A stretch of DNA of 62,880 bases, filler included, from Basidiobolus ranarum (taxonomy: Eukaryota): the NCBI GenBank assembly GCA_040143965.1. It is 27 parts of 27 records of this genome, joined end to end, with 100 filler letters (N's around TTAATTAATTAA, not from the genome) between each part and the next. Parts side by side here need not be neighbours in the genome. Positions count along the whole stretch, not along the records: positions 53,689 to 55,912 come from JASJQH010003614.1; 26 more parts are not named here. One strand, given 5' to 3'. The position numbers were made by a program, and so were the translations under genes. Under the pieces are notes generated by a model, which saw only the letters and a program-made list of their open reading frames with translations, searched no databases and was not told the origin of the DNA. This document shows, in pieces, positions 49,474 to 62,450 of the stretch. The number at the start of each line of letters is the position of its first letter. Positions within the stretch are counted from its first letter, which is position 1.

Positions 49474-51264
49474 CTAATTTTTACTACTCATATAGCTGCT
49501 TGATTCCAGAAAATTATATAATAGCTCATTCTCCTTGGTTTCAGTACTCATAGTGAAGTTTGAGACAGGATTATTGCTTGTTGGCTTTCTGCTAGGAATA
49601 TTTACCACAAGGATTGGTAATGATTGGAACTTAGTCATATATTCATTGGTGGCTGATGTTTTGGACCTTGATCCAGATGTGATATTTTCTGAATTTGGAT
49701 AATGTTGATAAGTAGATTCAGATGCTAAATTTGGCCTAATTCTAGTATCCATTTCCAATGTAGCATTTTCCAAGTTAGTTTCAGTACTTATTAGCTTAAG
49801 ATTGGTTTCAAAATTTGTTAACTTAGAATTTAAGTTATTGAAAAATTGATTTTCTGCCAAAATTGTATTTCCTTGATTAGGAGATTTGAGATTTTCTTCA
49901 ATGAATGTAGTATCTCTAGAGTTGATGATTTCATTTGTGCCATCAATTAGGAGATGATAGCCTTTGTTCAGATATCCTAATAGAATACACTTAATTACCT
50001 TTTTGTCCAATTTCCTATGCTGAGACTTAGGAATATGAGCATATAGTTTTGATCTAAATATTCTGAGATGATTCAGATTAGACTTGTTTCCAGTCCAGAG
50101 TTCAATAAGAGTTTTAAAGTCATGGTTGCCATATGTTGGACTTCTATTTTGGAGATACATAGCTGTTAAAATAGCTTCACCCCAATAGGTCTTAGGCAGA
50201 TCTAAATCAATCAGCATTGTATGTGCTTTCTCTACCAAAGTCCTATTCATCCTTTCTGCAACTCCATTTTGTCTTGCACTATATGGAATAGTTAATTGCT
50301 GCTGAATTCCCTTTTCTCAACAAAAGCTAGTCATGGCTTCATTGCTAAATTCAGTTTCATTATCACTGCATAAGTATTTGATTCTTTTTCCTGTTATGGT
50401 TATGACTTTTGTATCATATATCTTGGAATATTGAAACACTTCTCCTTTGCTCAACAGAAGATATGACACTGTGAAGTGAGATTTATCATCAATAAAGATG
50501 AGTAAATATCATCACTTACTTGGTGTCAGAGTATGTATTGGGCCACCAAAGTCTCTATGAATAAAATTCAATAAATCTATATGACTATGTAAGTGCTCAG
50601 GCAATGCTAATTTCCACATAAGTCTGTATGAATATGATCTAATAAATCTTTGGCTTTGCTAGCTCCTTCTTTTTGAAATGGTTTTCTGTTGATTTTCCCT
50701 TGAATATAGCTTTCATATTTAATAATATCTCAGGGCTCAAGATCCATTCCAGTACATAGGCTATTCTTATACAATAGCTTCATACTATTATAGTTAAGAT
50801 AACCCAAGCACTGATGCCATGTCATCAAGTTTCCAGAAGTAATTGTTGCAAAGTTAGAAATAGTCTCAGTTAATGGTGCAATATCCAGGTGATATAGATT
50901 CCCAATTCTTGTTCCAGTTACTACTATCAAGTCCTTCCATTTGTATATGGTTGCTTTTCCTTGGCTGAATTTGACATCATAATGTTTCTATTCAATTGCT
51001 CAAATTGAAAACAGATTTGTTATAAATGATGGAATATATAAGACATCTTCTAAGGTTACTGTTACACTCTTGGTTTTACTCATTTGTAAATCAAATGTCA
51101 CTTTTCCCATTCTATATGTAAACAGTTTGTTTCTTACAGCTACCATGATGTCCAGAGGTTCTATTTCCCTATAGTGATGCATTATGTTTCTATTGTGATA
51201 CATATGATCACTTGCACCAGAATCCAGAATCCATACATCAGCAGAGTCATTTCCTGATTTAGAG
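49474..51264 (-). pseudogene. Copia protease, gag-pre-integrase and integrase, degenerate
   Basis: WILDSGASDHM, TWHQCLGYLN, IFIDDKSHF, QNGVAERMNRTLVEKA, YWGEAILTAMYLQNRSP and KLDKKVIKCILLGY. Confidence 0.92.
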
Positions 51265-51364
51265 NNNNNNNNNNNNNNNNNNNNNNNNNNNNNNNNNNNN
51301 NNNNNNNNTTAATTAATTAANNNNNNNNNNNNNNNNNNNNNNNNNNNNNNNNNNNNNNNNNNNN

Positions 51365-52466
51365 TTCTGGCTAGTCAGGATGTAGCGTTTGATGCCTTCA
51401 AGAAATTCAAAGCAATGGGGGCGACTGAAACAGGTCAAAAGATTAGATTATCCATACTGATAATGGAGCTGAACATACCTCAAAACTCTTCTCTAACTTC
51501 TGCTCAACATATGAGATAAAAGAGCAGCCTATAGTGCCATATTTTCCACAGCAGAATGGAGTAGCAGAACATGCAAACAGATCAATAATGGAAAGGCAAG
51601 AGCAATGCTTCATGATTAAGATTTGTCAAAACAGTTCTGGGCTGAATTGATCTCAGACAGTACAGGAGGGAGAACTACAAGCCAATAGCAACTCCAATGG
51701 ATCCAGGTGTGAAACTGGCCAAAAGTCCCATCAAAATGATGAAAAGTGGCTAAATATGGCTCAAAATATGTCATTTGAAAGCCCTGAGTTCCCTTATCAA
51801 TCAATGGTGGATAGTTTAGTCTATGCTTTGACTGAATCTCAGCCAGATGTATCTTTTGTGGTGGGAGCAGTTAGCCAACATGTGTAAAACCCAGGATCTG
51901 AGCATTACTCAACAGTTGAGTGATATTTCAGATATTATGAAGGGGACAATTGATCTAGGATTAAGATACACATATTTTATGTAAATAAGGATCTAATTGG
52001 GCTTAGTGATGCAGATTGGGGTTGTTACATTGAGGACAGAAGATCTATTGCTGGATATACTTTCCTCTAAAGTGAAGCAGCCATATCTTGCAATAGCCAG
52101 AAACAACCCACCATAGCAAATTCAACAGCTGAAGCAGAGTACATGACAGCATCACATGCCACAAAGGAGGCTTTGTGGTTAAGAAAACTGTTCAAAGATT
52201 TGCACATTTTTCAAAGTTCACCCACCACAATTTTCAAGGATAATCAAAGTTGTTCTTATTTAGTTAAAAATCACAAATTTCAAGCTACAAGTAGGCACAT
52301 TGAGATTCAACATCACTTTGTTAGGGAAGCTATTGAAAATAAGCATGTCCAACTACAGTACTGCTTAACTGAGGACATGATTGCTGATATCCTTACCAAA
52401 CAATTACCCAAGCCAAAATTTGAAGAATTAAGATTTAAGTTAGGATTAAGATATATGAATAGTTAG
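51365..52466 (+). pseudogene. Internally deleted copia pol (integrase piece joined to RT end and RNase H)
   Basis: PQQNGVAEHANRSIME, SDADWG..EDRRSIAGY, STAEAEYM, DNQSC, RHIEIQHHFVRE and MIADILTK. Confidence 0.9.
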
Positions 52467-53688: not shown

Positions 53689-53871
53689 GGGTCTGGAGCT
53701 TTATATGGCGGTGGTAGTGGTGGTGGTGGTGACTCCAGCGGTAGTGGTTCTGGTGGGAAATATGCTGGTGGTGGTGGTTCAGGAGGTGATTATAGCGGAA
53801 ATGGTGGCGGCTCAGGTGGAAAATATGGTGGCGGAGGTTCTGGCGGTAACTATGGAGCCTATAAATATTAA
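53689..53871 (+). CDS. C-terminus of a Gly/Ser/Tyr-rich low-complexity protein
   Basis: GSGALYGGGSGGGGDSSGSGSGGKYAGGGGSGGDYSGNGGGSGGKYGGGGSGGNYGAYKY*, with third-position variation in the GGN codons. Confidence 0.75.
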   Translation, partial: GSGALYGGGSGGGGDSSGSGSGGKYAGGGGSGGDYSGNGGGSGGKYGGGGSGGNYGAYKY

Positions 53872-54162: not shown

Positions 54163-55912
54163 TTATTGATCTTGAGAACTAGGCTTTGATATGACCCGAG
54201 CACTAGAATCAATTACGCAACTACTGGAGTCACAATAACGTTCCATTTCGGGGTCCTTCGCCTCCTCTTTAACATGACGGAAATCGGGTTTCGGTATCTG
54301 GACCCCGCCATCAGCTACCAGACGTTTTAGTAACTTTTGGTGGGTACGAGGAGGCTTGGGAGAGTGTGGGGGTGGGTTGGAGATTCGTGAAGTCAGCTCA
54401 TAATATTTTTCTTCATCTATAGCCTCATATGGCATCTGAGGATATGCCCCGAGAGGTAAGCGAGGCAAGAATGAAACACCTAAGGAAACCACTTTTAATG
54501 ATTGTTAAGCGAAGATATAAAATCAATGCAAGGCTCACCTTTGAGCTGATATTGGAAATAGTCTAAAGCATGTTTCAAATGTGGACCTTCGGTCTTCGGA
54601 TCCAGTGTTACAGTGCAACTAACTTGGTTGTCTGACCAATATTTTTGCATGAACGCGCACAAACTTAGTTGTTCCCACATACTGACTTCTTTGAGGCCTC
54701 TAATCCCGTCGCCATGGTCAATTGGAATCTCAACCACCACAGAACTAGGTTCCACTAAAATTAAAATACGTGTTACCATTGCTATTTGAGGAATTAAGAA
54801 GTACCAACTGTCACATACCAACATCTTGTTCAATCAAATACCCGGCCTTGCTTAGAGCCCCAATCATTTCCGACCCTTTGGATAATCTCACACGACGAAG
54901 ACAATACCGGCTCTCGGGATAGTGCATACCAGGAGTGGCTATATGGGAATGGATTAGCATGCAACCTCATCCACTAATTGGAAGGATAACAAACCTCCGG
55001 CCAACAAAGAAACCGTTCCACTTGGCTTCACAGTTGTGGTTTTGATCGAACGAGGAATGCAAAACCATTCGGAAACTCTGAAATTAGAAATCAATTAGAC
55101 GGATCCTAAGATATCAAACAATTCTTAGCGAACTGACTGTTTGTCGATTTGTTGGACTGCTTTGTATCCTTCTTCACACCAATTCTTGAACTCGTTTAAT
55201 CCTAAGAACAATCATTAACAACTGCATCCTAGTGTTTATCTATGTTTGTCTATGAACAGATACCTCTTTTGCTGATGAATTGAGCTATTCCACTAAGACC
55301 AGTGCCAATGCGTCTATTTCTCAACATGACTTGATTACTCTCCTTCCAGTGAGTATTTCCCAAGGTCACTGTCTTTGCATAAAGAAAAGCAGACTCTAGG
55401 GTTTCTAAGAAATCCTCCAGAGAGCTATGGTTCGATGGAAACACTTCAACTAAGCAACAGAGCTCGTAAGACTCCAAGGTTTGCTCCAAACAAGGATTTC
55501 CCCCCTTGGCACGAGCATCTTTCATATTCTAAGTAGGACGGAAACGTGGGCGTAAGTACCGCTAAACCATACAAAGTCACTACATTAGAGGACTTACCAT
55601 TGGTTCGCTCATACGTCCATAGTTACGCGCATTCTCTAACCATGCAAATCCAGGTTCTCCGTTTTTGACCACTCGACTACATACTTTCGTGTAGTCCATA
55701 CCAAGGTTAGCAAAAACCTACGACATGGCCATTAGGGTTAGGGTTGGGGTGTTATTAGAAAGCAAAGCTACTTACGGAATTGTTACTTGTCCAGCCATAC
55801 TCACTACGATGTGGATTGACGTCGTAGTTTTTGAGGTCAATGTACTCGTCATCCATAGGATCACCGAAAGCAATCTCGGCTGTTCTTCTAACATTACCGC
55901 TCACTATGCATT
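54163..55912 (-). CDS. nrdJ: Adenosylcobalamin-dependent class II ribonucleotide (triphosphate) reductase, monomeric type; 8 exons visible, 5'-truncated
   Basis: [105 protein letters not shown] and C-terminal YCDSSSC. Seven GT-AG introns preserve the frame. Confidence 0.93.
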
Positions 55913-56012
55913 NNNNNNNNNNNNNNNNNNNNNNNNNNNNNNNNNNNNNNNNNNNNTTAATTAATTAANNNNNNNNNNNNNNNNNNNNNNNNNNNNNNNN
56001 NNNNNNNNNNNN

Positions 56013-61371: not shown

Positions 61372-62450
61372 GCTCTATTATAGCAAAGAAATAAGTATCC
61401 TGTTGTAGATCCCCTGTCTTCAATATCTCTTCCCCAATTTGCATCTGAATAGTCTATCAGATAAAAGTTTGATTCTCAATATATATATCTCAAGCACAGA
61501 TCATAGTATCTTCAAATATCTGAAAATCAGCTTAACTGCTATGATTTGACCAGATCCATAATTTTGAAGATATTGGCACATAGCTCCCACAGAATATGCA
61601 ATATCTGGCCATGTTCCAACCTTGATATATATCAAACTACCTGCCATATATTTGTAAGTAAATATCTGGCATTCATTTGAATCCAAGAAAATCTGATTTG
61701 AGCAATATTTGGTCAAGTTAAAACTTGTCTAAATTGGGGCAGATACTGAATTACATTCTTCCATTTTAAATTTCTTTAGTATAACTAGGATACACTTGGA
61801 CTGTTTCAAAGTTATTGCTTTGATATTTCTATCTATCTTAACTTTGATTGCAAAATTATACATCTGTTCTCCAAGACCAGTCTTTTTGAATATGACAGAT
61901 AAGCTGGACTTGGTTCTCTCCAGAGTCTTTAAATAATTGGCCGCTATAATAAGGTCATCTACATATAAGGCTACCAGTACTGAGTTTGTCGTATCTGGCC
62001 TGAAGTAGATACTATGATCAGCACTACTCTTTTGGAATTTGAGTGTTTCCAAAATTATGCCCACATTGCTATTCCAAGCACTTGGAGATTAGTTTAAACC
62101 ATAGAGTGTTCTCTGGAGTCTGCAAACCTTTTTAGGGTTTTTGTGGTCCACAAATGCATATGGATGGCTTATATAGAACTTCTCAGCAAGCTCACCTTTC
62201 AACAGTAGTTTTAACATCCATTTGATATCTAAAAAACTGATATTTAGTTCAAATTGCTAAAATCAATCTATTGAATTAACTTTGCTACCAATGCAAAAGT
62301 TTCTATATAATCTATTCCTGATGCTTGGGAATAGCCCATGGTTACTAGTCTAGCCTTGTATCATTTATATTACCATCAGAGTTGTATTGAACTTTCAACA
62401 TTTATTGGCAACCAATTGAATTTGTGCTATAATGTAAGTTGGTTAAAATC
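61372..62450 (-). pseudogene. Copia reverse transcriptase, degenerate
   Basis: YKARLVTMGYSQ, LQRTLYGLN, ALYVDDLIIA, GTWPDIAYSVG and YSDANWG. Confidence 0.9.

Follow-up and report, generated by a model that had tools for sequence, protein, structure and literature searches.

Class II ribonucleotide reductases (RNRs) use adenosylcobalamin (AdoCbl), and their chemistry needs no O2. The class II RNR of Euglena gracilis is reportedly AdoCbl-dependent and monomeric, and mitochondria are generally assumed to import or salvage their deoxyribonucleoside triphosphates (dNTPs). The Euglena enzyme is the one biochemically studied eukaryotic representative of the type (Torrents 2006), as cited in the available text of Crona 2013 (PMC3605638). 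The fungal enzymes were surveyed by Orlowska 2021 (PMC8085122), the retrieved sections of which give 24 class II proteins in 13 fungal species, class I RNR in every genome examined, and five class II copies in Basidiobolus meristosporus, including ORX89267.1 (here P0001). The present work concerns a class II RNR gene of Basidiobolus ranarum, designated A1, the 3' part of which lies in a stretch of 62,880 nucleotides (the window) from assembly GCA_040143965.1 (65 Mb, 13,754 contigs). As the B. meristosporus copies, P0001 among them, are listed in that survey, the core claim was already published at the genus level; the enzyme type of A1 is catalogued in the genus and the less expected property is its putative mitochondrial address.

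A1 has an intact reading frame, the catalytic cysteines, a fold like that of the Lactobacillus leichmannii enzyme (1L1L) and a basic leader; it is under purifying selection and is accompanied by B12-processing genes. The enzyme is probably a working monomeric class II RNR which is imported into mitochondria and makes dNTPs for mitochondrial DNA (mtDNA) when vitamin B12 is available, with class I RNR serving the nucleus.

The window is composed of unrelated contigs of about 2.2 kb each, joined by N44-TTAATTAATTAA-N44 linkers, so the sequences across the linkers are not genomic neighbours of A1. A1 is the working name for the gene joined from contigs C4 and C3614, the latter of which carries the window part: the 3' 439 codons on the minus strand, in 8 exons and 7 GT-AG introns, stop-free once spliced and ending with TAA at 54165-54163. 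The intron lengths (Table 1) are divisible by three in only two of the seven cases, and the reading frame therefore depends on splicing. The exon and intron counts given in the original prediction were reproduced by splicing and by a spliced aligner guided by P0001, which recovered the identical seven introns without being supplied with them. These introns are not due to chance because all seven match the duplicate A2 (below) in site and phase and six match both B paralogues. The public B. ranarum model P0121 (421 aa, 'hypothetical protein') equals the spliced window product from its first Met on. The NPCLE, ELCCLVE, TVKPSGT and CDSSSC motifs noticed earlier were all present in the spliced product.

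Positions 55835-55912 of the window are identical to the last 78 nt of contig C4 (an exact overlap), which holds exons 1-7 with the start codon at C4:69051. The joined A1 consists of 15 exons, 14 introns and 773 codons with no stops and no frameshifts, and all 14 splice sites are canonical. The truncation at 55912 is thus a contig end and not a lesion. A disrupted 5' part, which had been foreseen as a finding that would overturn the prediction, was rejected, as exons 1-7 are intact on C4. A1 is a real, intact nuclear gene of Basidiobolus.

Judged by its sequence, A1 is a monomeric class II RNR of the L. leichmannii type. The earlier assignment to the monomeric ribonucleoside triphosphate reductase (RTPR) type rather than to class I was borne out by the TIGR profiles, the 1L1L match and the fold. 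With the RTPR profile TIGR02505 (cut-off 340.05 bits), scores above the cut-off were determined for A2 (358.7), B2 (351.6), C (367.7), P0001 (367.4) and P0009 (354.3), and those of B1 (334.9), P0006 (337.2) and fragments, including the window fragment P0121 (171.9), were below it; the evidence of this profile for A1 comes from the duplicate A2 and the orthologue P0001. Exon 10 alone matched one PDB sequence, that of 1L1L. The best PDB sequence match of A2 was also 1L1L (E 3e-101), with the dimeric Thermotoga maritima NrdJ at E 4e-4. The fold was compared using the AlphaFold model of A2 (mean pLDDT 82), which is 87% identical to A1, and the best match was 1L1L with TM scores of 0.74/0.79 and E 1.8e-55; the other chains among the matches listed reached at most 0.48 by query length. 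The PF17975 domain was detected in the first exon of A1 with 45.4 bits (cut-off 26.4), and PF17975 and PF21995, the alpha and insertion domains that mimic the dimer interface, were both above the cut-off in P0001. The monomeric insertion and C-terminal cysteine pairs are described in the available part of Burnim 2022 (PMC9669993), in which no occurrence of 'BED' or 'mitochond' was found.

Residues C185, N430, C432, E434 and C443 of A1 align with C119, N406, C408, E410 and C419 of 1L1L, and each is kept in 97 or 98 of the 98 aligned rows. The L. leichmannii C408 is taken to be the thiyl-radical cysteine, and the catalytic roles of the other aligned residues are likewise assumed. C185, the partner of C443, is encoded on contig C4. 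In the C-terminal tail, the first Cys of the pair is found in 97 and the second in 94 of the 98 rows, and the Cys-x4-Cys tail (C751/C756 in A1) also occurs in A2 and C.

The class I profile TIGR02506 gave no match at E 1e-5 with P0121 or A2, compared with 717.8 bits for the genome's class I alpha, and no class I match was listed for A2 or P0001. A1 has Phe-Leu where the genome's class I alpha has the Tyr-Tyr radical-transfer pair, the two sites being presumably equivalent. Class I identity was ruled out by the profile and by the sequence and fold matches. With the dimeric class II profile TIGR02504, A2 scored 58.4 bits against a cut-off of 399.95, and the TM score of T. maritima NrdJ was at most 0.46 by query length; together with the sequence and fold matches this rules out a dimeric class II enzyme.

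A2 (public model P0123) is a full-length duplicate of A1. The two genes have all 14 intron sites in common, and upstream of each lie a desaturase gene and a gene of secreted type; they are therefore regarded as copies of a larger duplicated segment. The dN/dS between A1 and A2 (Nei-Gojobori) was determined to be 0.045 overall, 0.024 in the window part and 0.46 in the leader, which are rough values as the synonymous sites are close to saturation. A1 is under purifying selection. A decaying A1, weakened by a substitution and leaving the work to A2, would be in line with the syntenic duplication and with Glu334, the column of which has Lys in 75 and Arg in 16 of the 98 rows and Lys in all the other Basidiobolus copies. 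However, the open frame, the canonical splice sites and the low overall dN/dS speak against decay, and the tip branch of A1 (0.051-0.057) is no longer than that of A2 (0.065). The codon of Glu334 sits at the contig overlap beside a G run, and the substitution may for that reason be an assembly error. Decay of A1 is considered very improbable.

In the tree of 98 rows, A1 was placed in a 24-row clade of Zoopagomycota and Mucoromycota (SH-aLRT 99), which lies inside a 31-row clade of fungi, one aphelid and two unnamed rows (SH-aLRT 98) and further inside a 48-row clade (98) comprising all 45 eukaryotic rows and three long-branched rows from metagenome-assembled genomes (MAGs). Thirteen of the 45 eukaryotic rows are unnamed and were assigned to eukaryotes by their position in the tree. 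The trees were quick searches without bootstrap and omit most of the unnamed metagenomic matches, 37 of the 74 genome loci, two of the six viral loci, fragments, the partial copy B3, and the L. leichmannii, Dictyostelium and Euglena sequences. The eight Basidiobolus rows formed one clade in the smaller fungal tree (support 93, not starred), and the larger tree did not resolve them. With this position inside the fungi and the eukaryotes, A1 was not acquired from bacteria in recent times. The closeness of prokaryotic and viral relatives (up to about 65% identical) could have raised the suspicion of contamination or of a recent gene transfer from gut bacteria, but this is already refuted by the 14 spliceosomal introns, 11 of which are common to the B paralogues, by the eukaryotic neighbours on C4 and by the nesting among other fungi (SH-aLRT 98-99). 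The introns, neighbours and tree agree with the original prediction that the gene is not contamination; its description as 'domesticated' holds for the deep past but not for a recent event, A1 belonging to a clade of fungi that is itself part of a mainly eukaryotic clade.

The Asgard rows formed a distant clade, and proteins from marine metagenomes, viruses and MAGs together made up the sister of the eukaryotic clade, so that the tree points to no particular donor. A recent bacterial or Asgard-archaeal donor was accordingly not supported. Several observations were made in parallel. The three MAG rows nested in the eukaryotic clade are L086 (a MAG labelled Proteobacteria), L087 and L092; L086 begins like a presequence and may represent a contig of eukaryotic origin that was binned wrongly. 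Asgard MAGs of Hodarchaeota and Promethearchaeota (L036-L051, L101) encode a class II RNR of the monomeric type that is extended by about 100 residues at the N-terminus. In the class II RNR of Amoeboaphelidium occidentale (P0139), an intein-like sequence (PF14890) of about 350 residues is inserted.

The leader of A1 lies outside the window, on contig C4. The N-terminal extension is 67 residues long compared with a prokaryotic and viral median of 10. A1 and A2 both start with Met-Gln-Tyr at the same place, carry net charges of +6 and +5, respectively, over residues 1-30, and show their first Asp or Glu at position 49. In the A2 model, residues 1-62 are mostly below pLDDT 50, which corresponds to a leader of about 65 residues that is basic and disordered. 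A crude presequence rule (net charge of at least 3, at most one Asp/Glu and at least two Arg in 30 residues) was passed by 22 of 44 rows of the eukaryotic clade, 2 of 52 prokaryotic and viral rows and 395 of 5789 internal windows, one row having been dropped from each group for lack of a start Met. Both expected-mitochondrial controls (the mutase and MMAB1) passed the rule, and none of the four class I subunits did. An Arg-x-Phe-Ser cleavage flag was discarded, as in short proteins it is set off by a conserved motif of the core.

Stronger evidence of the location than this rule is provided by the proteomes of orthologues. The Dictyostelium RTPR, Q54CW7, has a mitochondrial enrichment ratio of 0.703 (cut-off 0.392), a TargetP call of mitochondrial targeting peptide (mTP) and an entry in the compendium of 936 mitochondrial proteins, according to the tables available from PMC9118663; the gene and protein identifiers are crossed in one table, with mTP in both rows, and RTPR is not mentioned in the main text of that article as far as available. 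In Naegleria gruberi, 4198 proteins were detected, of which 946 are putatively mitochondrial; XP_002679146.1 is one of the latter, with 15 unique peptides, in the accessible data of PMC8134430. The public model of the Naegleria protein is without a leader.

Several points weigh against a mitochondrial A1. The crude rule was set post hoc, the rows are related and the BED-type B2 passes too, and for these reasons its result is suggestive only; it also fails half of the eukaryotic rows, including both Umbelopsis, Amoeboaphelidium and the B. meristosporus orthologue, the public model of which starts about 29 residues later. The proteomes of Dictyostelium and Naegleria, as far as available, can take in organelle-associated proteins. 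RNR-II is stated to be cytosolic in the accessible text of a 2024 paper (PMC11439496). Euglena and Blastocystis seem to be without class I according to the consulted part of PMC3605638, in which case class II must feed the nucleus there, and the same article proposes class I as the source of dNTPs for mtDNA in Dictyostelium. Class II RNR is not mentioned in the obtained Andalucia supplements or in the retrieved main text of the Euglena proteome. Glu334 of A1, in a column with Lys or Arg in 91 of 98 rows, also counts here as read from the assembly.

The main alternative is a cytosolic, O2-independent backup to class I that provides bulk dNTPs in the low-oxygen gut of amphibians and reptiles or in dung. 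It would accommodate the coexistence of class I and class II in B. ranarum, the cytosolic assignment just cited and the guess of hypoxia tolerance in the available text of Crona 2013 (PMC3605638), and the leaderless paralogue C together with a presequence-free adenosyltransferase could do the job. However, this role suits C better than A1, the leader of which persists in both duplicates, and the orthologues of Dictyostelium and Naegleria co-purify with mitochondria in the proteome data at hand. Moreover, added AdoCbl gave no rescue from hydroxyurea, i.e. from class I inhibition, in the Dictyostelium experiments reported in the accessible part of PMC3605638, which by analogy fits a separate compartment for class II. 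A cytosolic backup is on balance unlikely.

A dual location, in which a weak or conditional leader, alternative starts or alternative splicing give mitochondrial and cytosolic pools, draws on the second Met of A1 at residue 16, on the shorter public isoforms of A2, B1, B2 and C, and on the fast evolution of the leader (see the dN/dS above). Nevertheless, a start at Met16 would retain the Arg-rich stretch, the short public isoforms start within the folded alpha domain and look like incomplete models, and dedicated leaderless and basic-signal paralogues exist in the genome. Such a distribution is regarded as improbable. The preferred reading remains the import of A1 into mitochondria.

The genome of B. 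ranarum carries class I alpha at two loci and class I beta at three. The class I alpha copy on C12 is intact; the second one, on C7177 near 9930, shifts frame at a short C run, being either an assembly error or a pseudogene. MetH, MetE, methylmalonyl-CoA mutase, MeaB, CblC, CblD and two adenosyltransferases were detected, so that all the items proposed for a genome search (MetH, mutase, adenosyltransferase and class I RNR) were found. B12 handling in B. ranarum appears from the gene content to be complete, and B12 to be optional since class I RNR and MetE are present. An obligate B12 dependence of DNA synthesis was ruled out by class I alpha and beta and MetE. The adenosyltransferase from C13:22110 onward has a presequence-like leader as judged by eye; the other, from C7217:7246 onward, has six residues followed by a basic stretch and the conserved core, a presequence being apparently absent by the same inspection. 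The synthesis of AdoCbl could therefore take place in mitochondria as well as outside them. Of the B12 genes expected elsewhere in the genome, adenosylation was thus accounted for, and uptake genes were outside the search. The O2-independent dNTP supply proposed at the outset is possible but not needed, in view of the class I enzyme and the AdoCbl non-rescue in Dictyostelium.

Based on the leader and the orthologues, the leader of A1 would be a cleavable presequence that is shed on entry into the matrix. There, A1 would adjoin the mitochondrial adenosyltransferase and methylmalonyl-CoA mutase at the site of AdoCbl synthesis. By analogy with the chemistry of the family, homolysis of AdoCbl would generate the thiyl radical on C432; C185/C443 would reduce the ribose and the C751/C756 tail would re-reduce them with electrons from thioredoxin. 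The substrates are expected from the family to be ribonucleoside triphosphates, with no O2, iron centre or second subunit needed. The dNTPs produced by A1 would go to mtDNA and those of class I RNR to the nucleus. B12 would have to come from bacteria, possibly those of the gut, dung or prey.

The class II RNRs of B. ranarum fall into three classes, A, B and C, each of which was found in B. meristosporus as well. For A2, B1, B2 and C, splicing gave proteins identical in every residue to the public models P0123, P0124, P0126 and P0128. Class A (A1, A2) is characterized by the 67-residue extension described above. Class B was located at C7300:4111-7548 and C8580:1831-5124; two fragments, one on C13041 and the other at C7886:7745-8138, probably represent a third copy, which is near but not identical to that of C8580. 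The class B extension is 174 residues long, lies in one exon with the start of the enzyme, and contains a Cys2-His-Cys finger similar to BED fingers as well as a basic stretch, Lys-Lys-Arg-Lys, that resembles a nuclear signal. The Trp-x2-Phe, Cys-x2-Cys, His-x3-Cys pattern is visible in B1, B2 and P0006. The PF02892 (BED) scores of the finger were 13.3-16.5 bits, below the cut-off of 20.6; Atlas zf-BED clusters matched it at 0.93, which serves as a lead only. The dN/dS of the finger was 0.056 compared with 0.32 for the linker, a domain-like conservation. A finger search among proteins of 484-1540 residues returned one of two candidates, the B. meristosporus orthologue only, so that within this search the fusion of a BED-like finger with RNR was confined to Basidiobolus. 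A gene-model artefact was ruled out, as in both copies that extend this far the finger is encoded in one open exon with the beginning of the enzyme. In the B tail, Tyr occupies the position of the second Cys and the other Cys is 11 residues past the first. A non-RNR gene pair at C7236:7680-7880 and C219:7975-8181 has a related BED-like finger (33-37% identity), and from this resemblance it is possibly the source family of the fused finger. Class C (C1103:3420-5613) has a short N-terminus and two introns compared with 12-14 in the other copies. It begins with Met-Gly in both species, where a myristoylation site might be guessed.

A more tentative extension, possible but less likely than the mitochondrial role of A1, is a B12-dependent dNTP system of three compartments, in which class A would be mitochondrial, class B nuclear by its BED finger and Lys-Lys-Arg-Lys stretch and perhaps on DNA, and class C cytosolic, with the two adenosyltransferases supplying AdoCbl on both sides of the mitochondrial membrane. 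If true, the enzymes of the eukaryotic class II clade would ancestrally have made dNTPs de novo within mitochondria, and this would explain why many microbial eukaryotes retain both RNR classes. A DNA-tethered class B enzyme, if true, would be relevant to the long-standing question of whether dNTPs are supplied locally where DNA is replicated or repaired. It is the location that would matter, given that RNR-II is cytosolic in the 2024 paper and that class II is called enigmatic in the sole in vivo study of the two classes. Basidiobolus offers a clean test in one genome, its three paralogue classes having a common core but each a different N-terminus. Among the titles and abstract openings covered by the literature search, from which subscription journals were mostly absent, none proposed a mitochondrial class II RNR or treated Basidiobolus RNR, and the targeting supplement of PMC11439496 may already contain predictions of a mitochondrial RNR-II; within the same scope, the three-way split of N-termini and the mitochondrial address of class A were not found in print.

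The features of the window part of A1 are collected in Table 1. On the same contig, the 3' end of a Gly/Ser/Tyr-rich open reading frame at 53689-53852 (+) converges on the RNR gene. Decayed retrotransposon pieces at 49474-52466 and 61500-62256 lie on neighbouring, unrelated contigs of the window; from their integrase, reverse transcriptase and RNase H-like frames they are presumably copia-like.

Table 1. Features of the window part of A1 and the adjoining linker, in the direction of transcription (window positions).
Feature	Position	Strand	Remarks
Exon 8 of 15, 5'-cut by contig end	55776..55912	-	Splicing, spliced alignment, C4 overlap
Intron	55718..55775	-	58 nt, phase 0, GT-AG; site common to A2, B1, B2
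Exon 9	55598..55717	-	Spliced alignment
Intron	55529..55597	-	69 nt, phase 0; site common to A2, B1, B2
Exon 10, finger loop and active site	55264..55528	-	97% identical to B. meristosporus P0001
NPCLE	55484..55498	-	A1 N430, C432, E434 = L. leichmannii N406, C408, E410
ELCCLVE	55445..55465	-	A1 C443 (first Cys, 55459-55457) = L. leichmannii C419
Intron	55202..55263	-	62 nt, phase 1; site common to A2, B1, B2
Exon 11	55138..55201	-	Spliced alignment
Intron	55078..55137	-	60 nt, phase 2; site common to A2, B1, B2
Exon 12	54995..55077	-	Includes TVKPSGT, 55034-55014
Intron	54939..54994	-	56 nt, phase 1; site common to A2, B1, B2
Exon 13	54819..54938	-	Spliced alignment
Intron	54755..54818	-	64 nt, phase 1; site common to A2, B1, B2
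Exon 14	54539..54754	-	Alone gives a weak RTPR (TIGR02505) match
Intron	54480..54538	-	59 nt, phase 1; site common to A2 only
Exon 15, barrel end, tail and stop codon	54163..54479	-	Phe-Leu at the place of the class I Tyr-Tyr
CDSSSC (C751, C756), putative C-terminal Cys-x4-Cys redox-shuttle pair	54217..54234	-	Alignment
Artificial contig linker (N44, TTAATTAATTAA, N44) cutting A1	55913..56012		

In comparison with the L. leichmannii RTPR, A1 shares the PF17975, PF21995, PF02867 architecture, the active-site residues, the TVKPSGT loop and the predicted fold, with about 31% identity in the fold alignment, and a corresponding activity is expected of A1 from the family only. A1 differs from the bacterial enzyme in being a spliced nuclear gene with a basic leader of about 65 residues and a longer Pro/Lys-rich C-terminal stretch. 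The direct orthologue is B. meristosporus ORX89267.1 (P0001), which is 97% identical to A1 in exon 10 and 89% to A2 overall; N-terminal signals, location and paralogue classes are not discussed for the fungal RNRs in the available sections of Orlowska 2021 (PMC8085122). Dictyostelium Q54CW7 and N. gruberi XP_002679146.1 are, like A1, eukaryotic monomeric class II enzymes, and coexistence with class I is shown for Dictyostelium. Euglena appears to be without class I in the consulted text of PMC3605638, whereas Basidiobolus keeps it. The dictyostelids have one nrdJ gene per genome with a role described as 'enigmatic' in the same text (Crona 2013), in contrast to the three paralogue classes of Basidiobolus.

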